Shown one piece after another: positions 42,046 through 60,393 of a DNA stretch of 64,000 bases. How positions within the stretch are numbered: the first letter of the stretch is position 1; each line of letters starts with the position of its first letter. This stretch comes from Spirochaetota bacterium (lineage in GTDB: Bacteria > Spirochaetota > Spirochaetia > Treponematales > UBA12059): assembly GCA_026398615.1 (NCBI GenBank), contig JAPLSN010000029.1, positions 22,469 through 86,468 on the forward strand, in the 5' to 3' direction. The translations under genes were made by a program, and so were the position numbers. A model generated the notes under the pieces. It was given only the letters and a program-made list of their open reading frames with translations, was not told the origin of the DNA and ran no database searches.

Positions 42046-42119
42046 CGGGAGCGACGGGTATCGAACCCGCGATCTCCGGCTTGACAGGCCAGCGCGATAA
42101 CCAGCTTCGCTACGCCCCC
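42046..42119 (-). tRNA. tRNA-Asp (anticodon GTC)
   Basis: Hand-folded: acceptor GGGGGCG/CGCUCCC (G4:U69), D-arm GCGA/UCGC, anticodon stem CUGGC/GCCGG with loop CUGUCAA, T-arm GCGGG-UUCGAUA-CCCGU, discriminator G (as expected for Asp); 74 nt. Confidence 0.85.
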
Positions 42120-42141
42120 GTGTCGTGAACCGACAGGCGGT

Positions 42142-42170
42142 ACTATACGTTTCGAGGCGAAACGTGTCAA
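42142..42170 (-). promoter_or_regulatory. Consensus sigma70 promoter TTGACA-17-TATAGT for the tRNA-Asp/tRNA-Pro operon
   Basis: Minus strand: cTTGACAcgtttcgcctcgaaacgTATAGTacc, about 22 nt upstream of the tRNA-Asp 5' end. Confidence 0.6.
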
Positions 42171-42211
42171 GGGAGGCTGGATTCCCATGCCCGTGGCGAC
42201 CGGAACGCCGT

Positions 42212-43438
42212 TCACGACGTGAGGACGACGGCTCCTGATTTTTCGTCGCGGTCGATGGAGCGCGGGGTCAACACTTCGACGAGGCGGCCAGAGGCTTCTT
42301 CGGCCGCGGGGCCGGTGACCAGCGAGTATCCGATCTCGGAGCAGGCGTAGCGGCCCGTTCCCAGCCGGGGAATGCGCATCGCGTCCGAGACCATGCGGAC
42401 GGAAAGGTGGTTCGAGGGCGTCAGGGGATGCTTCGGACCCTCGGACTCGGGCCGTGCTGGGTCGACGAGCAGGTAGCAGAGGGTGAGCCTGTCTTTCGGC
42501 AGCCCGACGTCTTCCGAGAATTTCTCGAGGCGTTTCGGGGCGGCACTGATATCGCACACGAAGTGGCACCACGGCATCTTGACCCGGTGCCGTGGCCGGT
42601 GGACGGGCGGCAGGGCGGACACGGGGATACCCGCATTGTCGGTGTCGAAGCCGCGGAAAGCGCCGGAAACGGGGCAGGCCCGGGCATGGGGACAGGGCGC
42701 CGCGGGATCGGAACCGGACAGGATGAAGGCTTCGCGAATAGCCGAGATGAAGGCGCCGGAGCGCGGCTCGCCGGGTTCGACCACGAGAATTCGTCCGCCG
42801 GGGTTCCTGAAGGAATCGAGCTCGACGGCGAAATCCACGGCCTTTTCCCTGACGGGGCGTCTGTCCTGCCAGAAGGTTTCCGTGAAGACGTTGACCGCGG
42901 TGACGAGATCCGCCGGCGGGAACGTTCGATTCCCGCGGCGTCCCCCGATGACGTCGCGGCGGGTTTCGATCGTCCAGGAGATCGCCTGCCCTGTCGAGCG
43001 CAGGGAGAGGGCGTCGAGGATCGCTTCGCCCGCCTCGAGGACTCGGGCCACACGGTCGACGCAGACTACCTTGAGCTTGCGGGTGCGGAGCTCGGGCCTT
43101 GCGATCCAGAGGGCGATCGGCACGGTGAAGGGGCCGGAACCCAGGTCGAGCAAGGTGGATCCCTCGCGAAGGTCGAAGCGGGGGCCCGCGAACAGGGGGA
43201 CAAGCCTCACGACGTTCCACGGCAGGAAGTAGCGGGCGTACGCGGACAGCGATTCGGGCATGCCGAGGTAGTCGGCCGGGCGGTCCGATCGTTCGCTCGT
43301 CAGCGAAGTCCAGAGATCGCGGACGCTCCTGGCGAGGTCCCGGCGGCGGGTTTTCGGAAGGGGCAGCGCATCGTCGATGGCGTCGACGAGATGCTCCAGG
43401 CAGCGTTTCGCGTCGGGCGGGAAATCGGACCGTTCCAT
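42212..43438 (-). CDS. Rsm22-like (COG5459) SAM-dependent methyltransferase with a C-terminal Cys cluster; the track ORF adds a 95-aa Arg-rich extension to 43723 (start uncertain)
   Basis: MTase fold LLDLGSGPFTVPIAL ... ILVVEPGEPRSG; Cys motif PCPHARACPVSG...WCHFVCD characteristic of the Rsm22 family. Confidence 0.65.
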   Translation of the reverse strand: MERSDFPPDAKRCLEHLVDAIDDALPLPKTRRRDLARSVRDLWTSLTSERSDRPADYLGMPESLSAYARYFLPWNVVRLVPLFAGPRFDLREGSTLLDLGSGPFTVPIALWIARPELRTRKLKVVCVDRVARVLEAGEAILDALSLRSTGQAISWTIETRRDVIGGRRGNRTFPPADLVTAVNVFTETFWQDRRPVREKAVDFAVELDSFRNPGGRILVVEPGEPRSGAFISAIREAFILSGSDPAAPCPHARACPVSGAFRGFDTDNAGIPVSALPPVHRPRHRVKMPWCHFVCDISAAPKRLEKFSEDVGLPKDRLTLCYLLVDPARPESEGPKHPLTPSNHLSVRMVSDAMRIPRLGTGRYACSEIGYSLVTGPAAEEASGRLVEVLTPRSIDRDEKSGAVVLTS

Positions 43439-43742
43439 GACGCGGAAATCGCGCTTTTCATGGACTGCGGGCGCCGGGTTGGACCGGAGGAGGGCGTCGC
43501 GGGGATCGCAGCGTTCGGAAAACGGCTGTTTCACGCCTTTGGCGGGACGACGATCGCGGGTTCCGCGCCGTTGGCCATCGGGTTTCCCGCCTTTTTCGGG
43601 TCCACCGGGGCGGCGGGCACCCGCACTTGAGCCGCTCCGTTCGCGGTTCGGGCGATCGCCCGGTTTTCGTTCGTTCACGACCGGATTCTCGCACGGGACG
43701 GCGAAGCGACGCAATGCCCGCACCCGGCGCGGGGGGCAACCA

Positions 43743-44915
43743 TCACCGGTAGGTGTAGCTTGCCCTCCATGCGTACGCCAGCGCGGGATCGACCGGGTTG
43801 AGGATGGCGACGAAGACGCTCGCGCCCGCGGGAGCCTTGAAGCTCAGCGGGTTCGCCTTGCCCGAAACCATGTTCGTCAGCGTGAAGCTCAACTCGACCT
43901 CGCGATCCCTTGTCATGCCGTTTTCGAAAAAGACGACGACCGTGTCGTCGACGGTCTCGGTCCGGATCGACGGGGCTTCGGCAGGGGCGGCTTTTCCTGA
44001 GTACCCCGCGTAGTCGGCGTCGCGCAAGGATTCCCCGAGAACGACGGACACGGCCGGCAAGCCGGGATGGACGGACAGGTACCACCGGCCCTGCTCGGGG
44101 TCGACGGCGGCGCTGTCCCGTCCTGCGAAGCGGAAAGGGACGGACGAAAGTCCATCCGCGGACGTGGGCAGCATCACGGCGAAGTGGAGGTGCGGACTGC
44201 TCGAGTAGCCCGTATTGCCCGAAAACCCGAGCAAGCCGCCCCGGATCACCCTGTCCCCGGGCGCGACCAGGACGCCGTCCTTCCTGAAGTGCACGTACTC
44301 CGCGAAGGTGCCGTCGTCGTGCATGATTTCCAGAAAATTGCCGTCCGGCCTGGAATCGGGCGTTGGCCCGCCGCGGTCCGAGTCTTCCTTGATCCGGATG
44401 ACGATGCCCGAACGCGCGGCGTGGACGGGTGTCCCGACGGGCATGTCGAAATCCACCGCGAAACGGTCCACCCCGGAGTGGGAAAAGGCCCCGTCAAAGC
44501 CCTGCATGATCCGGAACTTCGCGCCGTGGGCGAAGGGCGGCAAGTAGGGTTCGGCAGGTGCGTGCCGCGCCGTCGAAGGATCGCCCTCGAACCATGAATA
44601 GCGGTATTCGAAGGCGCTCTTCGCGGTATTGTCCCTGACGACCAGCTCCGCCACCCGAACCCGGCGCGAGGACGCAGGCACGACGACCGACAGGGTCGCG
44701 GAAGCGGGCGCCAGGTAATTGTCGATCCGGATGAAGGTGAGGGCAAGGCTCACCGGACAGGGCAGCTCGTTGTCGGCGTACAGCACCGAGCGGTCGGACA
44801 GGTTGTCCGCGGTCATCCGGACGGGTTCGGGCCCGACCGCCCGGGCTGGAACGGGGAAAGCAGCCAGGACGGCGCACAGGAAAGCGGCCGCTGTCGTTCG
44901 AAGTATCGGCTTCAT
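43743..44915 (-). CDS. Secreted M23-family metallopeptidase (paralogue-like of the TPR-M23 gene)
   Basis: Signal peptide MKPILRTTAAAFLCAVLAAFPVPARA; M23 motifs HSGVDRFAVDFDMPVGTPVHAARSG and GNTGYSSSPHLHFAV. Confidence 0.8.
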   Translation of the reverse strand: MKPILRTTAAAFLCAVLAAFPVPARAVGPEPVRMTADNLSDRSVLYADNELPCPVSLALTFIRIDNYLAPASATLSVVVPASSRRVRVAELVVRDNTAKSAFEYRYSWFEGDPSTARHAPAEPYLPPFAHGAKFRIMQGFDGAFSHSGVDRFAVDFDMPVGTPVHAARSGIVIRIKEDSDRGGPTPDSRPDGNFLEIMHDDGTFAEYVHFRKDGVLVAPGDRVIRGGLLGFSGNTGYSSSPHLHFAVMLPTSADGLSSVPFRFAGRDSAAVDPEQGRWYLSVHPGLPAVSVVLGESLRDADYAGYSGKAAPAEAPSIRTETVDDTVVVFFENGMTRDREVELSFTLTNMVSGKANPLSFKAPAGASVFVAILNPVDPALAYAWRASYTYR

Positions 44916-45086
44916 GCAGTCAGTATAACGCGACAGCGACATTTACAAACAGGTTCCCATGTGCTAGCCTGAAAAGTCGGGCCGCCCGGGAAGAAGGACG
45001 GCGACCGGCAAGGCTGGAAATCCATCAAGCCGATTTCGAAAACGACCGATTCCGGAATCGGAAACGCCCGCAAGGAGGAATTTCGC

Positions 45087-45599
45087 ATGAAAAGGCTCAT
45101 CATCGCCGTTTGCGCGCTCGCCGCGCTGTTCGCGCTGGGATCGTGCACGCTCAAGACCGTGAAAGTGGACGAAACCGCCGCTTCCGGGTACGACTACATC
45201 CTGGACAACATGAAGGTCTCCTCGGGCGTCTGGAGCAATAACTGGGCAACCGCCTTCGACGAGGCCCGCAAGGACTTCGTCCCCGTGGTAAGCTCCCGGA
45301 AATACGACAATCTCGAAATCTACCTCGGCGAAATCCACGCGCGCGATCTCGTGTTCGACGTGGCGAAGGACGACGACAACGTCTACTTCGAAATGTACAT
45401 GGTCTACACCGACTCCAGCGGCGCGGACGTCGCCAGGCTCCTCACCGGTGCCGACAAGGGGCTCATCTTCACCGTGAGCCGGGCGGGCTGGAACGTCCGG
45501 CTCGATTTCGACAACATGCCCCCGACCACCAAGGCGCTCAAGATAAAGATACAGAAAGGACGCGAAAACAAATACGTCGACGCCAGGTTCGACGCCTGA
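45087..45599 (+). CDS. Putative lipoprotein (170 aa)
   Basis: Signal peptide with a lipobox-like LGSC; AGGAGGAAtttcgcATG SD. Confidence 0.6.
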   Translation: MKRLIIAVCALAALFALGSCTLKTVKVDETAASGYDYILDNMKVSSGVWSNNWATAFDEARKDFVPVVSSRKYDNLEIYLGEIHARDLVFDVAKDDDNVYFEMYMVYTDSSGADVARLLTGADKGLIFTVSRAGWNVRLDFDNMPPTTKALKIKIQKGRENKYVDARFDA

Positions 45600-45677
45600 C
45601 AGGCATCGTTCGATCCGAATCCGACGGCGCCCGTGCGGCGCCGTTCTCGTAACCGCCGTATTCTCCGCAAACGGCGG

Positions 45678-46235
45678 TTACAGCAGGCCCCTCCCGAGTT
45701 CCTTCGCCCGGGCGAGCAAACCGGCCTCTGCGCCTTCGTCCCGCCCGGTGCCGTACACGATCCCCCTGATCACCGATCCGGTATACGAGAAGGCGTCCTC
45801 GAGGGTCCGTATCGCGTTGACCGCCCCCGACCTGTACGGATCGACGTCCCCGTAGGTCAGCAGGATCCCGACTTTCTTGCCGCGGAGGCTCCCGGTCGTC
45901 TCCACGTTCAGCCCGTAGAGCCTGTCCATGAACAGCTTGAGCTGGGCCGAAACGGAGAACCAGTAGATCGGGCTCGCGATCACCAGCGCGGAACAGCGTT
46001 CGATCCTTTCGTACAGCGGCGCCATGTCGTCGTCGATGACGCAGAATCGCTGCGCCCCCCTCCTGCATGCGTCGCAGGCGCTGCAGGGCCGGATCTCCAT
46101 CGTGTGAAGGCAGTATTCCTCGATTGCGACGGGCGAACCGCCCTCCCTGATGCCTTCAACGGCGGCCTTCGCGAGCGCACTGCTCGAGCCGTTTTTCCGG
46201 GGACTCCCGTGGATGACCAGGACCGTGTCTGACAT
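45678..46235 (-). CDS. Flavodoxin-like fold NAD(P)H-dependent FMN reductase / iron-sulfur flavoprotein-like protein
   Basis: LVIHGSPRKNGSS FMN-reductase N-terminus; Cys motif CSACDACRRG; SPIYWFSVSAQLK. Confidence 0.8.
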   Translation of the reverse strand: MSDTVLVIHGSPRKNGSSSALAKAAVEGIREGGSPVAIEEYCLHTMEIRPCSACDACRRGAQRFCVIDDDMAPLYERIERCSALVIASPIYWFSVSAQLKLFMDRLYGLNVETTGSLRGKKVGILLTYGDVDPYRSGAVNAIRTLEDAFSYTGSVIRGIVYGTGRDEGAEAGLLARAKELGRGLL

Positions 46236-46390
46236 GTTGATTCTCCTTCGGGCGGGATTTGATGCCGGGCGATCGGAGGCATCCGGCCGCGCGTATCCTC
46301 AGGGTGCCATGATACCCGGGGCGCGCGGGCGCATCAACGCCGGACGAGACGCGACCGCCGGTCCCGGTGTATGATCGCGGCATCGAAACC

Positions 46391-47677
46391 ATGAACGCCC
46401 CGTCGACCCTTCATCCCAAACGTCCGCTCGTACCCGCCCTGGCCCACCGCGGCTTCCGTTCGTTCTGGCTCGGGCAGTGCGTGTCGCTCGTCGGTACATG
46501 GATGCAGAACGTCGGCCAGACCATACTCGTCGTGAACCTTACGCGCAGCGATGCGGAACCCGGCGGATCCCCGCTCCTCGTCGGCCTCGTCGGCGCGGCG
46601 CAATACATCCCGATGCTGCTGTTTTCCCTCACGGCAGGGAGCATCGCCGACCGTCTCCCCAAGCGCCCCATCCTCGTCATCACGCAATCATGCATGGCCG
46701 CCCTCGCGATCGGGCTTTCCCTGCTCGACTTCGCGGGAATGGCGTCCTACGGCGTCGTCCTCGCGTTCGCCTTCGCGCTCGGCACCGTGAACGCGCTCGA
46801 CGTCCCGACGAGGCAGTCCTTCGTCGTGGAGATGGTCGGACGGAACCACCTGGCGAACGCGATCTCGCTCAACTCGGCCGCGTTCAACCTCGCCCGCATG
46901 GTCGGCCCCGCCGTCGCCGGCATCATGGCGGCGGCCATCGGCACGGCGCCGTGCTTCCTCCTGAACGGACTGTCCTTCCTCCCGGTGGTATTCGCCATCG
47001 CGACGATACGCCTCGACGATGACGCGATGGCCATCCGGTTCTCTTCGCGGCCGCGGGATCCGGACGACGGCATCATGGCCGGGCTGCGCTACGTGGCTCG
47101 CACCCCGACGGTGTTCTTTCCGCTCGTCCTGCTCGCGGTCGAAAGCGCGGTAGTCATGAACTACAACGTGCTCATCCCCGTCTTCAACGGTTCCGTGCTG
47201 GGCGGGGACGGAAGTTCGTTCGGACTCCTGCTCGGCGCCATGGGAGCCGGATCCTTCCTCGCCGCGGCCTTCCTGTCCACGAGGGGCGACCGCTCCCCCG
47301 ACCCCCGGCTCATGATCGCGGGAGCGGTCGGCGCGTCGATCTCCTTCGCCGCATGTTCCTTCGCGCGGGACTTCGCCATCGCCTGCATCCTCCTGGCGCT
47401 GACGGGTTTCTTCACGATCCTGTTCACGGCGACGACCAACGCGTTGGTGCAGCATTCCGTGGAGGACGCGAAGCGCGGCCGCGTGATGAGCATATACGCC
47501 CTCGTTTTCGGCGGCGTGATCCCGTTCGGCAACCTCTACGCCGGAGCCGTGGCGGCCACGGGCGGCGCGCCCTTCGCCATGGCGCTCTCCGGCGGCATCG
47601 GGACCGCTGCCGCGTTCCTGGTGCTCGGAGCGGTCGTCTCGTCGAGGCGGCGGCGGGAACGGACGGCGGCGGAGTAG
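46391..47677 (+). CDS. MFS transporter (EntS/enterobactin-exporter-like, 12 TM)
   Basis: MFS motif A-like GSIADRLPKRPIL between TM2 and TM3; 12 predicted TM helices. Start set at MNAPSTL. Confidence 0.85.
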   Translation: MNAPSTLHPKRPLVPALAHRGFRSFWLGQCVSLVGTWMQNVGQTILVVNLTRSDAEPGGSPLLVGLVGAAQYIPMLLFSLTAGSIADRLPKRPILVITQSCMAALAIGLSLLDFAGMASYGVVLAFAFALGTVNALDVPTRQSFVVEMVGRNHLANAISLNSAAFNLARMVGPAVAGIMAAAIGTAPCFLLNGLSFLPVVFAIATIRLDDDAMAIRFSSRPRDPDDGIMAGLRYVARTPTVFFPLVLLAVESAVVMNYNVLIPVFNGSVLGGDGSSFGLLLGAMGAGSFLAAAFLSTRGDRSPDPRLMIAGAVGASISFAACSFARDFAIACILLALTGFFTILFTATTNALVQHSVEDAKRGRVMSIYALVFGGVIPFGNLYAGAVAATGGAPFAMALSGGIGTAAAFLVLGAVVSSRRRRERTAAE

Positions 47678-48143
47678 CGGGCCGGCGCGGAGGTCCGCCC
47701 GTGGGTCCGGGGCCGATGCCCTCCTGTGATCAATACCGCCGCTCCTCGGGACAGAGAGCATGTGCGCAAAGCAGATCCCCGTCTTCGAACATCAGCTATC
47801 CTCGACCTTCCTCTCGAGGCGCGCGAAGACCCGCCTGGTGTTTTCCCTGCGCAATCGCCTCTGCTTTGACTTCGATCGCCACTTCATCGTCGAGGATAGA
47901 ATCCACCTCTAACCCGATACCGATCGCCACCAGGAACCTCCAACCACGAACTGCCGACTCTCTCGGCATTTATGGTATTGAATGCCAGGAGAGTTGGCGT
48001 CAAGGTGAAGCCGCTATCAGCAGTAACTCACAAGATTCGAAGACAGGGGGAAAACCCGGATCTACAGCTTCCCCATCCCCACGCCCTGCTCCTGCCTCGC
48101 CGTTTCACCGTCTGCGCTGCAAGATCCGCTCCCGCCACCTTGC

Positions 48144-48893
48144 TCACGCCCCGGACTCGCACCGGATTCCCCTCTCCGCGCAGAATCGCCTCACGAGCCC
48201 GGCGCGCTCCCGGTAAAACTCCTCGCGCCGGGCGTACTTCCCCGCCTCCGCGTTGTAGTTCCAGCCGCCGAAATAGATGCTGTCGACGAAACCCACGGCC
48301 CCGAGGATCTCCCCGAGATCCTGTTCGGCGAGGTTCGGCGTCGGGTAGGGCTCCATGTGGACGAGGGTCCTGCATCCCGCCTCATGGAGACGCTCGAGCG
48401 CCTCGATCCTTTCGGCATGGGGAGTCGCGCCCGGCTCCCATCGCCCGCGGAATTCCTCGGAAAGCGAGACGAGGCTGATCCCGTAGATATTGTCCTCCGG
48501 GAAACGGCCCCGGTCGGCGAGCTCGCCAGGCAGCTTACCCTTCGTGAGCACGGAAACCGGGATGCCCTTCGAGTTGATGAGGCCGATAAGCTTGAGGCTC
48601 ATCGCCGTCACCTCCGGCCACCCCGTCATGAAGGGATCGGTCGTGAGGCAGAGGTGGACGTACCCGGGCCTTTCCCTGAGTCGCCCGAGCTCCTTCGCGA
48701 GGAGCTCCGCCGCGTTCGCCACGAGCCTCGGGCGGCGCCAATCCCCGTAATCCCTGGCCCGGCCGTAGCTGCGCGCCATGGAGAAGGCATAGCAGGGGTA
48801 GAGGCAGCCATGGGAGCAGCCCTGCACGTGGTTGATGCAGAGGAAGCCGAGGGCGCTCCTGTTGAGCAGCGATTTACGCGTGATGGTTTCCAT
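48144..48893 (-). CDS. Radical SAM protein, SplB/DNA-repair-photolyase-like (COG1533-type)
   Basis: Cys motif INHVQGCSHGCLYPCYA resembles the SplB-family GCxHxCxYCYA cluster with one extra residue. Start set at METITRK; the track ORF begins 26 codons upstream. Confidence 0.65.
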   Translation of the reverse strand: METITRKSLLNRSALGFLCINHVQGCSHGCLYPCYAFSMARSYGRARDYGDWRRPRLVANAAELLAKELGRLRERPGYVHLCLTTDPFMTGWPEVTAMSLKLIGLINSKGIPVSVLTKGKLPGELADRGRFPEDNIYGISLVSLSEEFRGRWEPGATPHAERIEALERLHEAGCRTLVHMEPYPTPNLAEQDLGEILGAVGFVDSIYFGGWNYNAEAGKYARREEFYRERAGLVRRFCAERGIRCESGA

Positions 48894-49005
48894 TTTATTG
48901 TCCGGGGGAAGAACCCTTTCCTCGTGCCCGAAAGGGTTCCTCCCCCGGCCCCCCTCTTCCGAAAGACGCATACGGGAGGCTGAGCCCCAGTGGCTTCAAC
49001 GCCAT

Positions 49006-49149
49006 TTATCCCGTGAACAGAGACATCGCGATCTGCTTTGCGGAAACCGGAGATAAGCCCGCTTCATCTGCGATCCGATGGATCAACATAGGCAAGGCCC
49101 CCGTCTCGCCATCCCCCTCGACGATGGCGGCAATCCGGATTGGGCTCAT
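49006..49149 (-). pseudogene. Truncated Toprim-like (DUF4435/DUF4276/RloB-type) gene remnant, 47 codons, translationally coupled to the upstream ATPase
   Basis: ATG overlaps the ATPase stop (ATGA). MSPIRIAAIVEGDGETGALPMLIHRIADEAGL matches the Toprim beta1-E-G-x-x-E start of OLD/PARIS AriB-like partners, but a stop follows after 47 aa. Coordinates ±2. Confidence 0.4.
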
Positions 49150-50360
49150 CTCGCCTCTGTCCCGAATAAATCAAATTGCCGCGGGGGAAGACTCTCCATC
49201 ACTTTGGCATCGGGCCTGAGCTGCCCAAGCTTGAGAAGTTCGCCGGCCGTAAAAAGACGATCTTTGAGCGCGGAAATCCCGCAATCGTCGACGGGACCTA
49301 TCCTTGTTTCGCCGTCGATACTCTCGACCGCCAGAATATGCGAAGGGTCGAAATCATCATCGTCGAGGAGTTCCGGGCTGTGGCTCGTCACTATCACTTG
49401 CGTGGTTGTGGATGCCGAGTGAATAGCCGCACGAAGGATACCGGCGGCACCTGGGTGTATTGCGGTCTCTGGTTCCTCGATCCCTACGAGGGGAATACCC
49501 CTGGCGGCACTGCCGCCGTATTGCAAAAGCGCGGTCAGGATGCCGAGAACCCGCAGAGTGCCATCGGACATGTTCTCGGCGATGAACCGCCATGGAGCGG
49601 AGGTATTACCGACTTTCTGCCTGAATTGGATCGTCACCTTCCTCGACATGGGGACGATATCCACGTCCGAAATACCAGGTACAATGCGCGATAGATAGTC
49701 GACGATCGCCGAGAATGCATCGGGCTTCTCCCTTTTCAGGTACTCAAGAGAGGCAGCCAGATTGCGTCCGTCCCTTTTCAGTACCAATCCCGAATCCGGA
49801 GATTGAAGCTCGCGCATGGCGTCGGGGTTCAGGTTATAAAAACCCATGGTCGAAAGAGCGTCGAAGAGCGGACGAAACCCGGGGAGTCCGGCCGCAGCGA
49901 CGAGATAGAGTCTATCAATGGAGGCGGGCGGCATGATCGGCTCGCTAGAGCGTTCGATCGCACCAGCCTTGACCAGGTAAAAGGCATCCTCCACCCCTAA
50001 CGGACCGTGAATCATGCATCCTTCCTCGTCTACCGAACAGCCCCCATTCGCACGCGCTCCGATTTGGAAGGCGTAATAGCCATGAAGCTCCTCCGATAGC
50101 GAGAATTCCAGCCTGATGCCGAAGGAATTCGGATGGCCCGCCGACCTGCGACGAACCTCGTCTATGCCACCCCTATCCCTGAGCGCATGGTCAAGGCTTC
50201 CTGAGAGAGCTTCCGAGACGAAGCGCAAGGCATCCATAAAGTTGCTTTTGCCGGCTCCATTCGGCCCGACGAGGACGCTCAGCGGGCCGAGCGCGATAGC
50301 GCAGTGCGCGATGCTCTTGTAGTTACGCAATATCACCTTGCGAATGAATACGTTTGACAC
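49146..50360 (-). CDS. AAA_21/AAA_15-type ABC-like ATPase (OLD-family / PARIS AriA-like)
   Basis: N-terminal FIRKVILRNYKSIAHCAIALGPLSVLVGPNGAGKSNFMDALRFV (GxNGxGKSN Walker A); C-terminal LVGIEEPETAIHP and Walker B/D-loop-like TSHSPELLDDDDF. Likely GTG start (MSNVFIRKV) with a GGAAGG SD. About 50% GC. Confidence 0.75.
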   Translation of the reverse strand: MSNVFIRKVILRNYKSIAHCAIALGPLSVLVGPNGAGKSNFMDALRFVSEALSGSLDHALRDRGGIDEVRRRSAGHPNSFGIRLEFSLSEELHGYYAFQIGARANGGCSVDEEGCMIHGPLGVEDAFYLVKAGAIERSSEPIMPPASIDRLYLVAAAGLPGFRPLFDALSTMGFYNLNPDAMRELQSPDSGLVLKRDGRNLAASLEYLKREKPDAFSAIVDYLSRIVPGISDVDIVPMSRKVTIQFRQKVGNTSAPWRFIAENMSDGTLRVLGILTALLQYGGSAARGIPLVGIEEPETAIHPGAAGILRAAIHSASTTTQVIVTSHSPELLDDDDFDPSHILAVESIDGETRIGPVDDCGISALKDRLFTAGELLKLGQLRPDAKVMESLPPRQFDLFGTEAR

Positions 50361-50382
50361 AATCTGCCGCCTTCCACCAGAA

Positions 50383-50772
50383 CTAGATAATACTACAAAT
50401 TCGATTTCTCGATTCTTTTGCCTGAAGGCGGCACAGCCTCCAGCTGGATTTTCTCGGCCGCCCCGCCCCGGAAAACCCTGGCGCGGATGCTCGGCTCGAG
50501 CCGATCGGCCAACGCTCGCGCCTCGGCTGAAGGATCTGATAGCGCATGCAGATGAAGAAGACACTCGACTCTGTGATTTGACACCCATGAGAATCCAGAA
50601 TAATTCCGGACACTTCCGACATTGGAATAAACCCCGCGTCAATATCGTGCGGTGCAGATTTCTTTGGATTGCATTCGCATGACTCGCCCAGTATTGGCCC
50701 TTCCCACCCCTCCGGCAACTCCCTCTGCGTCTCCGCGCCTCCGCGTGAAATTCTTTCTTCTCTTTTTTTCAT
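50383..50772 (-). CDS. Hypothetical ORF B (129 aa) upstream of the ATPase; coding status doubtful
   Basis: Start overlaps the stop of ORF A (ATGA); ends 22 nt before the ATPase GTG. Composition only weakly protein-like. Confidence 0.25.
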   Translation of the reverse strand: MKKREERISRGGAETQRELPEGWEGPILGESCECNPKKSAPHDIDAGFIPMSEVSGIILDSHGCQITESSVFFICMRYQILQPRRERWPIGSSRASAPGFSGAGRPRKSSWRLCRLQAKESRNRICSII

Positions 50773-51002
50773 CCCGCCCTCTCCCCGAACAGAGGCCGCA
50801 GTTTTTCGACCGCCTGGCGCAGGTCGCCTGATGCACCGGCGTCGGGGAGGCGGGAGCAGCGGTCGGCGGCCTTCCAGAGAGCGCTGAGGGCCTCCCGATC
50901 GGCGAAGAGGAGGAGGCCGAGATCCCGCCTCGCGCCGTCCCGCGCGGTATGCCTCGTGCTCTTCCCTATCTTCCCTGACAGCTCATCGTAGATACTGATC
51001 AT
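50769..51002 (-). CDS. Hypothetical ORF A (77 aa), first ORF of the putative ATPase operon
   Basis: GGGGGAGGGGAGGG SD-like stretch before ATG; helical-looking C-terminal half (LSALWKAADRCSRLPDAG..LRQAVEKLRPLF). Confidence 0.3.
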   Translation of the reverse strand: MISIYDELSGKIGKSTRHTARDGARRDLGLLLFADREALSALWKAADRCSRLPDAGASGDLRQAVEKLRPLFGERAG

Positions 51003-51203
51003 GGCCCTCCCCTCCCCCGCTCGATCCGACCAGCCGCCTGCTTCCTTGTGGCGCCGTCAAGCATGATCCGCACATGGACGTCCCGGTCCTCTTCCTGGAA
51101 AAGTACGTTGTGTTGCAGCATTTCGTTCTTGCCCTTCCCCCAGAGCAACGTCATCTCCGCCGATGCGGTATCCGAAATTGTACAGGACCGCAAGCACACG
51201 TCG

Positions 51204-52190
51204 TTATTCACGGGACGCTGCTCGATTTCTTGCAGTCTTTTGGAACCGGCTCTTGGGATCGTCCCACCCCGGATTTCGGATGCCTTTGGGATCCACGAGA
51301 ATTACATGTTGCTTTCCGCCCGCGAGCAGCCACAGGATGAAGTCGGGATAAAAATTCCCTGCTTTGAAAAAGCCTATGCTGCGGCCCTTGCTCAGATTAC
51401 GCAGTAGATAGAGATCGCGTGTCTCGAAACATTCAGTGTTGCAGTCATGGAAAGATTTTATATCCTCAACGAAATGCCGCTCGCTTTTGCTGAGCGGGGC
51501 CAGACGAGCACTCATGGTATCCGGTGTGCCGGCTATTGCCAAGGATGAAGAGGCAAGGAGCTTGCGAAGGATAAACTGGATCAAGTGACGTTGGCGGCAG
51601 GGGATGGCGCAGATTTCCGGACGCTGAATGAAAGAGGAAATGGCTTCATAAAGCTTATGTTCATCATCGGTCGGCTGGAAAGGCCGAGTGATCGCATGGC
51701 GTTCGGTAAACCGGACATATTCGGTAACCTGCTTCCGCAGTGTCCGTTTACAGAATCCCGCCAGACGCCCTCGCAAGGCATTGATGTTGGCCCCCACTCC
51801 GGTAATTTGTGCCCGGAATGCAGCGAGATCATAATAAAGCTGTTCATCCATGAGCGTTGAAAGTCCGAACAGCTCCAGGAGAGAGTTCTGGAGCGGCGTT
51901 GCGGAAACAAGCGGCTTGCGGCTGTCTTCCGTTGCCCAACGAATGCCCTTCCCTACCTTTGTCGACGAAAGACCCCGTCCAGCCTTCAGCGCCTCCCGGT
52001 AAGGGTTTGAGTCCAGGGTGAATGTTGGAATATTGAACTTCTCTTCAAGCTCCAGAGCCCATTGCTTTCGTATCGAAGCCGGGCATATGACGAGCGGGCG
52101 GCGTTTGCGCTCCGCCCAATAGTATTTGGCGTGATACGGGGTCAATCTCATCGGGGCGCCTCTGATACCGTAGCACGGCAACTCTGCCAT
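51204..52190 (-). pseudogene. Degraded SNF2/DEAD-like helicase fused to a PD-(D/E)xK nuclease (restriction/defence-type) with the Walker A region deleted
   Basis: [10 protein letters not shown] (L.PYQ-like) runs directly into [20 protein letters not shown] (motif Ia/Ib) with no GxGKT. Motif III is [18 protein letters not shown]-terminal FYPDFILW...ILVDPKG is a PD-(D/E)xK core. 328 aa against >800 expected. About 50% GC. Confidence 0.6.
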
Positions 52191-52222
52191 CTGCCGTTCA
52201 TTACGTTAGCATTAAACCGGAC

Positions 52223-52738
52223 TTGACAATGAGTAATCATATCCTTGAAACGCAGTCGATGTCATCGTTTTCGGGGGCCGCCGCCATCCTCGCCGCGAGG
52301 GGCGGGTTGCCCCACCCGGGACGGCTGGCCGCCTCGTTCTGCTGCGCCGTCGCGGCCCTGCTCCTCCACCGCTTCTCGGAGGGCGGTTTCCGGAGGATGT
52401 TCCTCCTGCACGAGGAACTGGAACGGAATAACCGCAAGCTCGATTCCCTTTCGTACCACGACGCACTTACCGGCATCTACAACCGGCGCTTCCTCGAGGA
52501 GACCATGACCCGGGAGCTCGAAACCGTCGTCCTGTTCGCGGAACGGGTCAGGGCTTCCGTCGCCGAAACCCCGATGCCCATGTTCGACATGCCGATCATC
52601 CCGAGCGCCGGCGTCGCATCGGCCCGGCCCGACGACTCGCCCGCCGCGTTTTTCGAACGGGCGGACACCCTGCCCTACGAGGCCAGGCGTTCCGGCAGGA
52701 ACCGGGTCGCTGCGCAGGACGCCCGGGCTGGCGCTTGA
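52223..52738 (+). pseudogene. GGDEF-domain remnant (TM helix plus a partial diguanylate-cyclase domain lacking the GG(D/E)EF motif)
   Basis: GGDEF N-terminal block SYHDALTGIYNRRFLEE is followed directly by the C-terminal block ...VLFAERVRASVAET... RADTLPYEARRSGRNRV; the catalytic RYGGEEF region is absent. Confidence 0.55.
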
Positions 52739-52769
52739 CGCGTTCCCCCCAAGGCGCCACCATCGTCCC

Positions 52770-53228
52770 ATGATCCCCGAAAAAGTCGCCCGCGTGCTCG
52801 CGGACGCCGGCTTGACGGCCCTCGAGTTCGAACCCGGCTCGACACCGACCGCCCCGCTCGCGGCGGAACGCATCGGCGTCGCGGTCGGGCAGATCGCCAA
52901 GTCCCTCCTCTTCCGCGCGAAGGACGGCAGCCACCACCTCATCGTCTGCTCAGGCGACCGCCGCGTCGACTCCTCCCGTCTCAAGGCGCTCGTCGGCTGC
53001 AGGGCGAGCATGGCCGACGCCGAGGAAACGCTGAGTATCACCGGCTACCCGCCGGGCGGGGTCTGTCCCTTCGCCCTGGAAGGCGTCGCGGTCTGGATCG
53101 ACGAGAGCCTGGCCGCGTACGGGACCGTCTACCCGGCCGCCGGCACGGACTCGACCGGCGTCCCGACCGACTTCGAGACGCTCCTCAGGATCACCGGAGG
53201 GCGGCGCGCCTCGGTGACGGAACCGTAG
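52770..53228 (+). CDS. YbaK/ProX-family aminoacyl-tRNA deacylase (Cys-tRNA(Pro)/Ala-tRNA(Pro) editing domain)
   Basis: IAKSLLFRAKDGSHHLIVCSGDRRVDSSRLKAL... ITGYPPGGVCPFAL: YbaK-like editing-domain motifs including the conserved Lys. Confidence 0.8.
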   Translation: MIPEKVARVLADAGLTALEFEPGSTPTAPLAAERIGVAVGQIAKSLLFRAKDGSHHLIVCSGDRRVDSSRLKALVGCRASMADAEETLSITGYPPGGVCPFALEGVAVWIDESLAAYGTVYPAAGTDSTGVPTDFETLLRITGGRRASVTEP

Positions 53229-53511
53229 GGAGAGCGGTCGGGATCCTCCGCCGCGATCGTGCGGCCCTCCCCCGTCGAGCTCCGGAGCCTTGGAAGCCAT
53301 GCCTTGTCAATTTTTTCGTTGCATGATGCCTTGAGGGATACGGCAACCATCGAGAATGGCGGTCCGGGGAAGTGCGGCAATGCGCAGGATTTTCCTTCTG
53401 GCACTTTTTACCGTGACGATTGTCCTTCCGTTTCCCGTGCGTCCCGCCCGTTCGATTGCCGTCATGAGGAATACGCACTATCATTGGGGCGATCCAATCA
53501 AGGAGGATCCG

Positions 53512-54267
53512 ATGCGGTCTGCCCATCCTTCTCTCGCTCTCCCCATCCTGCTCGTTGTCCTGGCGGCCGCGGCGCCGCCTCTCTGGGGTGCGGATCCCTA
53601 CCTGTCCGTCTCGGTCGATGTGGGCATGGAAGGCGGCCCTGTCGCCATGGGCGTGGGTGGACCGCTCCGGGACTGGTACGGCTATTTCTATAATTTCTTC
53701 TCGGTCCCGATCCGCGTGGAGTGGTACCCCGGCCTCCCCTTGATTCTGAGCGGCGGAGCGACCGGGGTGATGAAGGGATTCGTTTTCAACACCGCCGGCC
53801 TGATCCCGGAGGCCGGAGTGGAGCTCATCCTGTACAATGACGACCTGATTACGCATTCCGTTGGCGTCCAGGGCCGGTGGTTCATGCTGGAGTACGACGT
53901 GATGTTGCTCGACGATGTGGGCGGTGATTACAGCTTCGATGACGTCCGGCATCAGGGGACCATCAACGACACGGAGTACAGGATCGGGTACTACTTCCGG
54001 ACCCTGCTGGACGGGAGCATGGACCAGCAGATCCGGGCGCATGCGGAGCTATCCTTCGAACGAAAGAACATCACGGACATCCAGGCCATCCGGACCGCTC
54101 CCAACACCTACAGTACGCCTGTTACCGTGGTCGACACGGCGGAAACCACCGGCTTCGTGGTCGGGTTCGGCGGTCTCATGAAAGTCATCGACTTCGACCT
54201 CGCTATCGGACGCGCGAAGGGGATGATGTGGATCAGCCTCAGAATGGGGATGGCCCTGATGCTGTGA
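53512..54267 (+). CDS. Secreted hypothetical protein, possible outer-membrane beta-barrel
   Basis: AAGGAGG SD before ATG 53512; signal peptide MRSAHPSLALPILLVVLAAAAPPLWGA; beta-rich with aromatic girdle-like residues. Track ORF starts upstream at 53356. Confidence 0.55.
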   Translation: MRSAHPSLALPILLVVLAAAAPPLWGADPYLSVSVDVGMEGGPVAMGVGGPLRDWYGYFYNFFSVPIRVEWYPGLPLILSGGATGVMKGFVFNTAGLIPEAGVELILYNDDLITHSVGVQGRWFMLEYDVMLLDDVGGDYSFDDVRHQGTINDTEYRIGYYFRTLLDGSMDQQIRAHAELSFERKNITDIQAIRTAPNTYSTPVTVVDTAETTGFVVGFGGLMKVIDFDLAIGRAKGMMWISLRMGMALML

Positions 54268-54400
54268 GGCCCGGGCTCCGACGGAGACGGCCGACACGGT
54301 CAAGGCGGAGCCCCTCCAGCAGGCCCTGGCGGCCATGATGGAGCGCTGCCCCTGTTTCCGCGTCCGTCTCCGGCGCGGCGCTTTCGATGCCTCACTTCCT

Positions 54401-55426
54401 TCAATCGAGGGACAGTACGACTTTCCCTGACTCTCCCGAAAGCATGGCGTCGAATCCCTTCTGGAAATCGTCGAAGGGGAAGCGGTGGGTGATGACGGGG
54501 CCGATGTCGAGGCCGGAGAGGATCATGGCCTGCATCTTGTACCAGGTTTCGAAGATTTCACGGCCGTAGATGCCCTTGAGGAAGAGGCCCTTGAAGATGA
54601 CCTTGTCCCAGTCTATGCCGGCGCCGTTCGGGAGGATGCCCAGCAGGGCGATGCGGCCGCCGTTGTACATGTTCTCCAGCATCTGCTCGAAGGCCTGGGG
54701 CGAACCGGACATTTCCATGCCGATGTCGAAGCCGCCGACCATGCCGAGTTCCTTCTGGACGTCGTGCAGGTTTTCCTTGGCCACGTTGACGGCGCGCGTG
54801 GCGCCGAGCTTGAGGGCGAGGCGGAGACGGTAGTCGTTCAGGTCGGTGATGACGACGTTGCGCGCCCCGACGTGGTGCGCGATGGCGGCGGCCATGCAGC
54901 CGATGGGGCCGGCGCCGGTGATGAGGACGTCCTCGCCCACCATCTCGAAGGAGAGCGCCGTGTGGGTGGCGTTGCCGTAGGGATCGAAGATGGAAGCGAT
55001 TTCGTCCGGGATGGAATCATGGACGTGCCAGGCGTTGGAGGAGGGAACGGCGACGAACTCGGCGAAACAGCCGTCGCGGTTGACGCCGATGCCGCGGGTG
55101 TTGGGGCAGAGGTGTCGCTTGCCGGCCCGGCATGCGCGGCAGACGCCGCACACGATGTGGCCTTCCGCGGAGACGCGCTCGCCGATCCTGTAGCCCTGGA
55201 CCGCGCGGCCCATGTCGACGATTTCGCCCACGAATTCGTGTCCGATGGTCATGGGCGTCTTGATGGTTCGCTTGGACCAGTCGTCCCACTTGTAGATGTG
55301 GACGTCGGTGCCGCAGATGGCGGTCTTCCTGACTTTGATGAGGAGGTCGTTGTCGCCGATATTGGGCATGGGGACGTCTTCCATCCAGATGCCGGGTTCG
55401 GCATATTTCTTGACGAGGGCTTTCAT
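54401..55426 (-). CDS. tdh: L-threonine 3-dehydrogenase (zinc-dependent MDR family)
   Basis: MKALVKK... [10 protein letters not shown] ... catalytic/structural zinc Cys cluster [15 protein letters not shown]; GxGxxG (ITGAGPIG) NAD-binding motif; 341 aa, typical Tdh length. Confidence 0.9.
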
Positions 55427-55683
55427 GTCGTTCTCCTTCCGTTGGTGCGATCGCGGGCCTGCGTCTGCCGCTCCCGTCCGGCAGACGGCATGACGCCGAT
55501 ATTATACGACCTTTCCCCGATGTCGTGAAGAAAAGAAATCGATAAAACCGTATCGTTTGCCGGAAGAAGCATGTGCATCATGGTACGACACGCCGTGTTC
55601 CGGGGTTTTAGCGTTGCGCGTCTCCGCAAAAGCGCGGATACTCGTCCTGATCATTCCGATAATTTCCTTGAAGGAAAATTACC

Positions 55684-56598
55684 ATGACGTTGCGCACCCG
55701 GTTGCAGATGATCTTCGGAACGACGGTGCTCGTTTCGTTCGCGAGCGTGCTCGTCTTCGCGGCTCTCGGCATCCGGAAGGAGATGCGCAGCTCCCTCGAG
55801 ACGATAGCCACGGAAACCGCGGGCCGTTATGCGGCCGGAATCGACGCCAGGACCGGGGAAGCCCTGCTCACGGCCCGTACCGCCGCCCGGATATTTTCCA
55901 ACTTCGAGCGCTTCGCGACGACGGACCGCAGGAACACGATCGACGCCCAGGTGCGGTCGCTCCTGGAGCGGAACGGCAAGTTCACGTCCATCCGGGTTTT
56001 CTTCGAGCCCGACGCCCTCGACGGGCTGGATGCCCGGTACGCGGGAACGGAGCTCGGCAATGACGCCGGGCGTTTCGACATCGTCTGGCACAACGAGGGC
56101 GGCCTCGTCGAACGGGGCAGGTCCACCGAGGCCGCCCTTGTCGAAAGCGAACTCTATGCGACGGTGAAGAAGCTCTCCGTCGAAGTGGTGCTCGATCCCC
56201 GGGACTACGCCTACGGCACCGGTTCCCCCCTTCCCCGCGTGAGCGCGACGGCCCCGATACACGACATCTACGACACGTTCATCGGCGCGGTCAGCATCGA
56301 TCTGACCCTCACGGACTTCCAGGGCATCATCGACGAGGTGAGGCCCTTCGGAACCGGTTTCGCCGGGCTCTACACGAAAAACGGGTACATTCTCGCCCAC
56401 AGGGAACGTGCCCTGTTCTCGAAAAATTTCACAGACGAAGCCGCGCGCTACCTGCCGGAGGGCGCCGCCGTCCTCGCTGACGCCATCGCCGTGGCGGAGC
56501 AGGTGTCCGCCAAGCTCGTGAACGCGGCGACGAACCCTTCGTCTGATCGACGGAGGACCCGCGTCAGCCGAGTGTGTGGAAAAAAACGGTGGCGATGA
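55684..56598 (+). pseudogene. Chemoreceptor N-terminal fragment: TM1 plus a Cache-like periplasmic sensor domain, no TM2/HAMP/signalling domain
   Basis: MTLRTRLQMIFGTTVLVSFASVLVFAALG TM1, then a ~270-aa sensor domain; the ORF ends in unstructured SSDRRRTRVSRVCGKKRWR and overlaps the 3' end of the convergent ZIP gene. Confidence 0.5.
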
Positions 56599-57871
56599 AC
56601 CCGAGCACGGTGAAAAGCCCGACCATCCTGATGTTGCGCTCGTAGGCCTCCGGCAGCATGGTCTGCGCGGTCATGGCCAGCATGGAACCCGCCGCGAGCC
56701 CTTCGAAGAGGGAGTGCGCCGTGGGCGGAAGGATGCCGGAAATGAGGTTGCCGAGCAGTGCCCCGACTCCGACGGCGGCCACGAGGGAGATCCACATCCA
56801 GAGTATCCGGCCGGCCTTCGTGCCGGACTCCTTCATCATCGTGGAACTCGACAGGGATTCGGGCAGGTTGGCCATGAAGAGGCCGGCGATGAGGGCGGGG
56901 CTCGCGTTGAAACCCTGCATGCTTGCACCGATCACGAGGGATTCGGGGATGCCGTCCAGGAGAAGGCCGAGCCAGATGGCCGTCGCCGCCCCGGTCCGCC
57001 CCTCGCTCGCCGCGACCTTGATCTCGGTCTCGGTCAGGCGGTAGGCGCTCTCGTCGAGGTGGCGCGCGGCTTCCTTCACCCATTCCTCGCCGCTCAGGGC
57101 CGCGGCGGGGATCTTGCCGGTCCGGCCCCTGGCTGCGGCAAGCTCCGCCACAGCCGACTTGAGCTCGGGGCTCGACTCCGCCAGGAATTCGAAGTCCTCC
57201 CTGCGGACGACGTACGCGCGCGTGTCGCTCACGGGTATCGCGTCGGCGGCGCGGGGAGCGTTCCAGATGAGGGCCATCTCGCCGAAGGTCTCGCCCTCGC
57301 CGAGTTCCGCGACGAGGGAACGGCTCCCCTTGTCATCCGTGTACTCGATGCGCACGGCGCCGGTATCGATGATGTACATGGCATCGCCCGAGCCGCCCTG
57401 GAGGCAGACAGGAACGTCCTTGGGGAAGCTCCTGAGCTCGATGTAGGGGACGATCGCCTGTACCTGGTCGGCGGGCAGCGAGCGCAGGATGTCGACGTGA
57501 CCGAGTTTTTCGAGCAGTTCCTGGGCCGCGCGCTTCTTCTTCGTCCGCAAGACCGACAACAGGGTGGAACGCTTGCGCGCCCAGGCGCCGCTTTCGTCCG
57601 CCATGCGGGACAGCGCGATGAAGAGGAGGCAGCCCAAAAGCAGTCCCGCGGCGAGGGGGAGGAAGCCGGCGTCTTCCCGTTCCACCGCCGGGTTGACGAG
57701 TTCAAAGGAAATGGCAGCTATAAGCGAACCGGCGCCGAACGACATGACGGCGGAGATCACGGTCCTCGAAGGTTTTGTCCAGAGCCCGATGAGCGCCCCG
57801 ACGGGGAGCGACACCGAACTCAGGGCTCCGAAAAGGAGGGCTGCGAAAGCGGACGAACGGAAAAAATCCAT
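56564..57871 (-). CDS. ZIP-family (ZupT-like) metal transporter with a cyclic-nucleotide-binding (cNMP) domain in the central cytoplasmic loop
   Basis: ZIP TM helices at both ends (HSLFEGLAAG, HTLG); central CAP-family cNMP-binding domain (GDAMYIIDTGAVRIE... GEGETFGEMALI... AAD...TRAY). Start set at MDFFRSS. Confidence 0.75.
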   Translation of the reverse strand: MDFFRSSAFAALLFGALSSVSLPVGALIGLWTKPSRTVISAVMSFGAGSLIAAISFELVNPAVEREDAGFLPLAAGLLLGCLLFIALSRMADESGAWARKRSTLLSVLRTKKKRAAQELLEKLGHVDILRSLPADQVQAIVPYIELRSFPKDVPVCLQGGSGDAMYIIDTGAVRIEYTDDKGSRSLVAELGEGETFGEMALIWNAPRAADAIPVSDTRAYVVRREDFEFLAESSPELKSAVAELAAARGRTGKIPAAALSGEEWVKEAARHLDESAYRLTETEIKVAASEGRTGAATAIWLGLLLDGIPESLVIGASMQGFNASPALIAGLFMANLPESLSSSTMMKESGTKAGRILWMWISLVAAVGVGALLGNLISGILPPTAHSLFEGLAAGSMLAMTAQTMLPEAYERNIRMVGLFTVLGFIATVFFHTLG

Positions 57872-58058
57872 TACGGACCTCCGGGGTGCGGGGCTTTCGT
57901 CGAAGTATAGATCGACAACGCGTAAAAATCGAATCCGGGGCACCGGGCCGCAGGGAGTTCGGAACGGTGTCCGTGCGATTGGGATCGCCTGAGGCGGATC
58001 ATTTCAGTACATTCGAAACGGCGGGCCGCCGGATCGACGGACTCGCCGGAGGAACCAG

Positions 58059-58262
58059 ATGACCAGCAACATGGGAAAGATCGACCGCGTCATCCGCATC
58101 GTGCTCGCGGCCGCGTTCTTCACGCTCGTCGCCCTGGGCGTCGTACGGGGTCCGCTCGCATGGCTGCTCGGGGCGCTTGCCGTCGTGTTCGCCGCCACGA
58201 GCGTCGTGGCTTTCTGCCCGCTCTACCTGCCCTTCAAGTTCTCCACCAAGCCCAAGGCTTGA
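58059..58262 (+). CDS. DUF2892/YgaP-like small inner-membrane protein (67 aa)
   Basis: GKIDRVIRIVLAAAFFTLVALG...LLGALAVVFAATSVVAFCPLY: the two-TM DUF2892 signature with a conserved CP motif. Confidence 0.6.
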   Translation: MTSNMGKIDRVIRIVLAAAFFTLVALGVVRGPLAWLLGALAVVFAATSVVAFCPLYLPFKFSTKPKA

Positions 58263-58336
58263 AGCATGGCCGCCGCCGGAAAGGACTCGGCGGCGGTTTC
58301 ATTCCGACCATCGGGGTGAAACGGGCGGCCGCGGAC

Positions 58337-60136: not shown

Positions 60137-60263
60137 TGAACCCCCGGGATTTGATGGCATATCGCCGATCATCCCGGAAAACATTATTGCACTACTTCCG
60201 GGCAAGTCAAGCCGGTAAAGATCGCCCTTGGGTATCGCGTCATGCTTCCGGACCATCGCAGCC

Positions 60264-60393
60264 TCATTGCACGGGGAAGCCGAATTTCACGATCAGGTTG
60301 TCCCGGTCCACCGTCGGATGCTGGACGTTCTTCGTGAGCTCCGGCACGCGCGCAGTAACGTACGCCCGCAGCTCCGTCGTGTCCGCGATACCG
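60264..60393 (-). CDS. Displaced 3' terminal segment of the WD40-caspase gene ([42 protein letters not shown]-stop)
   Basis: Encodes the canonical caspase-domain C-terminal tail (DG.IT..EL..YV...V.....Q.P). Its first 34 nt are a perfect copy of 61210-61243, where the main gene body breaks off. Confidence 0.6.
60360..60393. repeat. 34-bp perfect direct repeat, copy 1 (GTACGCCCGCAGCTCCGTCGTGTCCGCGATACCG)
   Basis: Identical to 61210-61243; the two copies flank the ~0.82-kb insert. Confidence 0.8.

Follow-up and report, generated by a model that had tools for sequence, protein, structure and literature searches.

The window analysed here is a stretch of 64,000 nt from contig JAPLSN010000029.1 (GCA_026398615.1), in which an initial annotation had marked positions 47700-52740 as resembling a decayed anti-phage locus. 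This span contains the gene of an ABC ATPase of the HEC-01A family, followed by a truncated version of its partner HEC-01B, and, further upstream, the remains of a helicase and of a restriction nuclease which now share a single open reading frame (ORF). According to its description (Payne et al., bioRxiv 10.1101/2024.01.29.577857), HEC-01 (Hma-embedded candidate 01) combines an ABC ATPase with a TOPRIM-like protein and occurs inside Hma as well as inside other defence systems. The features belonging to these two groups are the following, coordinates being those of the window:

49146 to 50360, minus strand: HEC-01A ABC ATPase, 404 aa, intact, with a GTG start.
49006 to 49149, minus strand: stub of HEC-01B (DUF4276, TOPRIM-like), a 47-aa ORF with homology in its first ~29-35 codons only.
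52190 to 51204, minus strand: chimeric ORF of 328 aa, with its natural start at M14 (52151), as in a 315-aa NCBI protein.
51501 to 52151, minus strand: remnant of the N-terminal half of a DrmD-like SNF2 helicase, with two in-frame deletions and a GC content at third codon positions (GC3) of 0.587.
51228 to 51500, minus strand: PD-(D/E)xK nuclease segment from a Type III-like restriction enzyme, in frame with the helicase remnant.
51029 to 51235, minus strand: frameshifted C-terminal tail of the restriction enzyme, found by tblastn, which includes the frame of a 70-aa ORF (ORF B of the initial annotation).

The AAA_21-type ATPase reported earlier is present at full length, and the motifs quoted for it were all located. 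While the ORF extends from 50642 to 49146, profile matches are gained only from residue 97 on and the gene proper is 50360-49146; an identical protein (P0001) is called as a 404-aa gene, and GGAAGG precedes the GTG start. Using the HEC-01 profiles of PADLOC-DB v2, the protein matches HEC-01A (PDLC04178) with an expectation value (E) of 8e-155 over profile positions 6-396 of 399, and its Pfam matches are AAA_21, AAA_15 and SMC_N. Walker A (GPNGAGKSN, 50267-50241), signature, Walker B and H-loop motifs were all found, and the protein also carries LVGIEEPE...HP and TSHSPELLDDDDF. Homologues of ~405 aa sharing 55-68% identity are spread over many phyla; plasmid and phage collections returned only distant relatives (at most 46% identity). 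When compared with 37 homologues, the ATPase deviates at 10 of 154 highly conserved columns, each time conservatively, and its sisters P0003 and P0002 deviate at 11 and 7, respectively. Based on this profile coverage and these motifs, the ATPase is assigned as a full-length member of the HEC-01 family and a predicted defence-family protein.

The Toprim-like stub was also confirmed, its ATG overlapping the ATPase stop codon as ATGA. It matches the PADLOC HEC-01B profile at positions 1-35 of 218 (E 7e-9), contains IAAIVEGDGE, keeps the first TOPRIM glutamate motif and, by tblastn, shares 69% identity with residues 1-29 of a complete DUF4276 partner of 197 aa. The remaining ~165 residues of that partner were absent from the whole window in the same type of search, and the stub lacks the metal-binding DxD region and the acidic motif that intact partners carry at about residues 75-80. 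Such partners measure 197-207 aa in related loci and start with the same ATGA overlap. We collected 80 HEC-01 loci from metagenomes, of which 38 were informative (complete ATPase and at least 650 bp downstream); a full-length DUF4276 gene directly follows the ATPase gene in 37 of these 38, which makes the pairing nearly obligate. HEC-01 is incomplete here: the A gene is present and the full-length B gene is not. The earlier assignment of the pair to PARIS AriA/AriB or to a two-gene OLD system did not hold, as the HEC-01A match far exceeds those of the competing profiles (AriA, E 1.9e-27; Old, E 1.3e-18; GajA, E 5.6e-13), the six-frame Pfam scan gave no match to DUF4435, and the stub matches HEC-01B only.

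The 328-aa ORF had been interpreted as an SNF2/DEAD-like helicase fused to a PD-(D/E)xK nuclease and deprived of its Walker A region. This region is indeed lost, and motif II is lost as well, but the ORF does not represent a natural fusion: judged from its alignments, it is a deletion chimera of two genes from a three-gene system, and a predicted pseudogene. Its helicase part matches PADLOC DrmD (E 8e-43, profile positions 169-332) and NCBIfam DISARM_DrmD_b (E 3e-43). As a BLASTP reference we used P0130, an intact N-terminal half encoded by a 532-aa gene of locus L087. Residues 5-13, 81-129 and 172 to ~330 of P0130 are retained in the ORF, and residues 14-80 (motif I, ADEVGLGKT) and ~130-171 (motif II, DEVH) are missing; the corresponding junctions lie at ~52119/52118 (loss of motif I) and 51972/51971 (loss of motif II, DEAH). 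Past approximately residue 330 of P0130, the helicase sequence, including the helicase C domain, is replaced by nuclease sequence. The latter matches PADLOC REase_III (E 3.9e-15, profile positions 975-1061 of 1154), is 57% identical to residues 149-239 of a 304-aa C-terminal fragment encoded in L087 (L087_304), and carries the motifs YPDF (51350-51339) and VDPKG (51296-51282). A frame shift of the 1-nt class then occurs at ~51235-51228, and the last ~60 residues of the enzyme run on to 51029 in a frame differing from that of 51500-51228, with tblastn matches to residues 238-297 of L087_304 and 422-509 of L088_510.

The parent layout is seen in L087, L092 and L093, where an SNF2 (DrmD_b-like) helicase gene is followed by an N6_N4/Type III-like methyltransferase gene and then by a ResIII-nuclease gene. 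Added up, the profiles (872, 1057 and 1154 positions long) give ~9 kb for the three-gene system in its intact form, of which 1.16 kb is left in the window. About 87% is gone; the losses include motifs I and II of the helicase together with its C domain, all of the methyltransferase, and the part of Res that is a helicase. Related SNF2/Mod/Res systems are also split into ORFs or chimeras in L087 (8001-13629), L088, L092 (9001-17993) and L093 (9001-17204); L088 (406-1938) holds a separate helicase/nuclease chimera, with a different junction, beside an integrase. The broken state in these four metagenome contigs may reflect recurrent decay or sequencing error in the assemblies. A sigma-70-like promoter match (10/12) is located at 52236-52265 on the minus strand, upstream of the chimeric helicase ORF and within the 5' end of a divergent GGDEF gene described below. 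Judging from its position, the chimeric pseudogene and the co-oriented genes downstream may still be transcribed from this site; the promoter and terminator scan of the locus gave counts at background level.

Two native genes, a short native inverted repeat and two segments assigned to the HEC-01 insert occupy the rest of the region up to 51002:

50769 to 51002, minus strand: orf77 (ORF A of the initial annotation), a native small gene of 77 aa, GC 0.67 and GC3 0.795.
50361 to 50745, minus strand: low-GC spacer of 385 bp, GC 0.561, taken as the 5' part of the HEC-01 insert.
48970 to 49005, minus strand: 3' tail of the insert, for which no homology was found; native similarity to L090 starts at 48969.
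48902 to 48948, minus strand: native hairpin, an inverted repeat with a 19-bp stem, -39.7 kcal/mol, z -4.8.
48144 to 48893, minus strand: radical-SAM gene (COG1533 'DNA repair photolyase'-like), 249 aa, intact and native, matching Pfam Radical_SAM and starting with METITRK.

In locus L089, a counterpart of orf77 (867-1100; 68% amino acid and 78% nucleotide identity) lies 45 bp upstream of the radical-SAM gene, while the same two genes are ~1.87 kb apart in the window. Similarity to L089 fades at most ~25 nt past the orf77 stop codon. In the opposite direction, the window resembles the Rectinemataceae locus L090 from the radical-SAM gene upstream to 48969. Because similarity to L089 and L090 bounds it, we place the insert at ~48970-50745 (~1.8 kb); it consists of the 385-bp spacer, the ATPase gene, the stub and ~90 bp without assignment. 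Upstream of orf77, similarity to L089 begins at 51027 and homology to L088 ends at 51029, so that the end of the nuclease gene abuts the native upstream region of orf77. The spacer at 50361-50745 gave no Pfam, PADLOC or Rfam match and no homology to the 80 HEC-01 loci. For the spacer, the ~90-bp tail and the region 47678-48143, six-frame Pfam scans and Pfam searches with E up to 10 were empty, and tblastn and blastn searches against the context loci and the 80 HEC-01 loci returned nothing significant.

Orthologues of the radical-SAM protein were found at 84%, 81%, 78%, 76% and 72% identity (249-255 aa for those at 84, 81 and 76%), each in ordinary surroundings unrelated to defence. L089 is the closest of these loci, and the gene occurs without the ATPase in five relatives; orf77 has no family match. 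Two small ORFs had been proposed to form a module with the ATPase through translational coupling. Both lie 408 nt upstream of the ATPase start and are not coupled to it; they overlap one another and the helicase ORF. One of them, ORF A, is the native orf77, which immediately precedes the radical-SAM gene in a relative devoid of the ATPase. The other, ORF B, is the end of the restriction-enzyme pseudogene, read in a shifted frame; neither belongs to such a module.

The hairpin ends ~8 nt before the start codon of the radical-SAM gene. A homologous hairpin with changed bases is found at the same position in L090 (681-728; -38.2 kcal/mol), z being ~-4.7 for both; it is absent from the shorter L089 spacer and has no Rfam match. 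We considered it as part of the insert and rejected this, given its conservation ahead of the L090 radical-SAM gene. In this radical-SAM family it may serve to regulate or insulate the gene from its 5' side. An Rfam search of 47000-53500 with E up to 1 revealed no RNA family. The cysteine motif of the radical-SAM protein and of its L089 orthologue is C-SHG-C-LYP-C (CX3CX3C) rather than the canonical CX3CX2C, and at ~250 aa the family is shorter than the weakly matched PA0069 and Rv2578c families.

While the GC content of the window is 0.647, that of 47700-52740 is 0.592 and reaches a minimum of 0.52 over 400-bp windows. Low GC is confined to two pieces, 48896-50745 (0.572) and 51028-52190 (0.543), parted by the orf77 block at 50768-51027 (0.681). 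The GC3 of ten native neighbours ranges from 0.78 to 0.92, compared with 0.642 for the ATPase gene and 0.587 for the helicase/nuclease ORF, so that the two groups of genes are clearly set apart. The anomaly described in the initial annotation is therefore real in both GC and GC3, although neither the span nor its pieces come down to the ~50% GC given there. The radical-SAM gene, described as GC-normal, is so (GC 0.659, GC3 0.868). The single mosaic island proposed around it gave way to at least two separate foreign inserts within a native backbone, the two low-GC pieces being split by a block of native composition. Elsewhere in the window, the lowest-GC stretch overall lies at ~11000-13900 (1-kb minimum 0.523). 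It holds an 826-aa ORF (13961-11481, minus strand) with phosphoglucomutase/phosphomannomutase domains and adjoins a tRNA-Ala gene (14518-14592); it may be another acquired segment and, by Pfam, is no defence locus.

Two further features lie at the outer ends of the span:

52229 to 52738, plus strand: membrane GGDEF gene, native, a 169-aa gene in L001 and L002, GC 0.661 and GC3 0.831.
47720 to 48010, minus strand: candidate C-terminal remnant of an AAA_14/DUF4143 (PDC-S01) ATPase, degenerate, with weak matches.

In the first, Pfam covers GGDEF profile positions 2-25 and TIGR00254 covers positions 96-167, and positions ~26-95 are absent. The two halves are joined in frame near residue 100, at a junction near 52514-52525. 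The GG(D/E)EF core is missing, as had been noticed, but the gene is not foreign island DNA: its GC3 is that of the native neighbours, and it counts as a native gene whose catalytic core has been deleted in frame. At the other end, a 57-aa ORF (47969-47796) lies inside 47720-48010 and corresponds to the ORF formerly described as RHH/ParD-like. The ORF exists, but it has no RHH match in Pfam, NCBIfam or PADLOC and no adjacent toxin gene. Six-frame and relaxed Pfam scans of 47720-48010 gave no match. The PADLOC PDC-S01 profile matches weakly (E 0.004-0.006) at positions 347-385 of 422, when read through two in-frame stops, and BLASTP aligns the remnant with residues 321-374 of a true PDC-S01 protein (E 0.006). 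The GC content of 47678-48143 is 0.603. Based on these weak alignments, the 47.7-48.0 kb region may hold a PDC-S01-like remnant.

Very probably, at least two foreign anti-phage modules were acquired at a variable chromosomal spot of a Spirochaetota genome and subsequently inactivated by deletion. The native backbone would have read GGDEF, orf77, radical-SAM and MFS. A three-gene helicase/Mod/Res system would have arrived upstream of orf77, an HEC-01 cassette would have entered the short spacer between orf77 and the radical-SAM gene, and a PDC-S01 gene possibly arrived beyond the latter. Later deletions would have stripped most of each module, leaving HEC-01B with ~30 codons and the ATPase gene as the one foreign gene still intact. 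In OLD, Gabija and PARIS, the ATPase gates or controls the TOPRIM effector. By analogy, the HEC-01 ATPase would be the sensor of infection, with the TOPRIM nuclease under its control; because this effector is lost, the system is likely inert, and it is most probably dead as a defence here. The family assignments, the stub and the GC and GC3 results support the earlier interpretation of the locus as horizontally acquired anti-phage DNA in decay. The ATPase is no syntenic housekeeping protein, its gene not being found at the same position in the relatives examined; the stub has a profile match, and the compositional anomaly is present.

Several observations nevertheless speak against acquisition followed by decay. 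No flanking direct or inverted repeats beyond matches of chance size were found around the inserts, no integrase or transposase was recognised among the window ORFs, and no tRNA lies nearer than 42.1 kb, so the arrival of the inserts is not accounted for. The uninterrupted orf77/radical-SAM pair is seen in one relative only (L089); four other relatives have no orf77 counterpart upstream of the radical-SAM gene, and their neighbours differ. We found no genome close enough to calculate the ratio of nonsynonymous to synonymous substitution rates, or carrying an empty or intact allele. A scan of the genome collection with the flanking MFS transporter gave relatives of at most 49% identity with no neighbour in common with the window, and a scan of metagenome contigs with a lineage-specific 303-aa neighbour gave no match. 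HEC-01 conferred no protection against the phages assayed in Escherichia coli (bioRxiv 10.1101/2024.01.29.577857), so that even its ancestral defence role is presumed. The ATPase itself is free of signs of decay, its loss of function being deduced from the missing partner. Finally, the four deletion junctions in coding sequence (two in the helicase, the helicase/nuclease fusion and GGDEF) are all in frame, an outcome with a chance of ~1/81 if random and one that simple neutral decay does not predict.

The intact ATPase is an orphan which is either too recent to have decayed or kept for another reason. One such reason would be that it still works alone, with the 47-aa peptide or with another effector, as a minimal or novel variant of an ABC-ATPase module for defence or regulation. 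The protein is of full length with every catalytic motif, its substitutions are conservative, its GTG start is plausible given the GGAAGG upstream, and the stub has kept both the ATGA overlap that couples its start to the ATPase gene and the first glutamate motif of TOPRIM. We nevertheless consider this unlikely: all but one of the 38 informative relatives keep a full-length partner, the stub lacks everything past residue ~30-35, acidic motif included, and there is no further nuclease or effector gene beside it, as what follows is the native radical-SAM gene that five relatives carry without the ATPase. In addition, the two-gene systems of the same class that were assayed, HEC-02 and HEC-03, require both genes (bioRxiv 10.1101/2024.01.29.577857). 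That selection rather than chance has preserved the orphan ATPase, and perhaps the products of the in-frame deletions, appears improbable. In such a case the ATPase would serve as a stand-alone sensor or regulator, or as partner of an effector encoded elsewhere, or the in-frame deletions would let transcription and translation continue into the downstream native orf77 and radical-SAM genes.

The view that the whole of 47.7-52.2 kb, orf77 and radical-SAM gene included, forms one mosaic mobile island draws on the ORFs from 52190 to 48144, which are all co-oriented with short gaps, on the defence-type remnants found on three sides of the orf77/radical-SAM pair, and on a radical-SAM neighbourhood that differs in each relative. 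It is very improbable: the GC3 of orf77 (0.80) and of the radical-SAM gene (0.87) is like that of the host, the defence ORFs having 0.59-0.64; L089 has the two genes side by side without defence genes; and none of the 80 HEC-01 loci shows DrmD, REase, orf77-like or spacer homology within 4 kb. The internal deletions could also be thought of as artefacts of metagenome assembly or binning, as the sequence comes from a metagenome-assembled genome (P0121 and P0241, NCBI entries on a 98.7-kb contig that are identical to proteins of the window, bear the name 'MAG: ... [Spirochaetes bacterium]') and related loci are fragmented too in long metagenome contigs. However, Logan assemblies made independently from the separate runs SRR20698649 and SRR20698648 match 42063-60360 of the window at 99.99% and 100% identity, and because both span every junction described, the arrangement does not stem from an error in a single assembly. 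The junctions are also clean and in frame, unlike frameshifts caused by sequencing errors, which leaves this explanation with hardly any likelihood. We consequently retain the acquisition of at least two anti-phage modules followed by their inactivation through deletion.

The locus is a case of ordinary defence-gene decay that includes an incomplete member of the known candidate family HEC-01, and it contains no new module. Its significance beyond bookkeeping is little. For annotation purposes, the ATPase should not be recorded as a working PARIS, OLD or HEC-01 system, and the "SNF2-related protein" of 315/328 aa, like the GGDEF protein of 169 aa, is a pseudogene product. The locus provides a mapped example of defence genes gained in the spacers around native genes and then deleted, and its natural "ATPase-only" allele of HEC-01 could serve as a control if a function of HEC-01 is established. 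The four in-frame deletions out of four would be of interest only if such deletions recurred genome-wide.

Among known systems, the cassette is closest to HEC-01: the ATPase spans the HEC-01A profile, the beginning of the next ORF is that of HEC-01B/DUF4276, 4-nt overlap included, and the cassette lies amid remnants of other defence genes, a typical HEC-01 setting. It differs in that HEC-01B is cut to ~30-35 codons and in that the cassette sits between two housekeeping-type native genes and not within an intact host defence system. With PARIS (AriA and the DUF4435 protein AriB), OLD and Gabija it shares the pairing of an AAA_15/21-type ABC ATPase with a TOPRIM-fold effector. However, the partner domain is DUF4276 instead of DUF4435 or TOPRIM_OLD, and the ATPase profiles of these systems score far lower. 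Unlike in OLD and GajA, the two genes are separate and the ATPase has its own stop at 404 aa; the Old and GajA profiles cover only the N-terminal P-loop stretch. The second module resembles systems combining a DrmD helicase with Mod and Res, as its ORF matches DrmD 169-332 and then REase_III 975-1061, while the window keeps only the chimeric ORF and a frameshifted tail. As for PDC-S01, the remnant aligns weakly to its C-terminal 'EVD...EVKA' and a PDC-S01 gene is embedded in the helicase/Res locus of L087, but the remnant has two in-frame stops, ~75% of the gene is absent and E is only 0.004-0.006. The closest relatives of the HEC-01A gene (L003-L005; 68% identity in L003, 1-5460) occur with an HTH_3 gene and beside a BREX BrxC gene (PADLOC E 1e-261). 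On the other side, these loci carry a gene of 196 aa that runs into the end of the contig; by eye, without a profile search, its N-terminus looks PglX-like. Within 4 kb of the 80 metagenome HEC-01 loci, a search for BREX or for the helicase/Res system gave no match. This setting extends the 'embedded' habit of HEC-01 to BREX.

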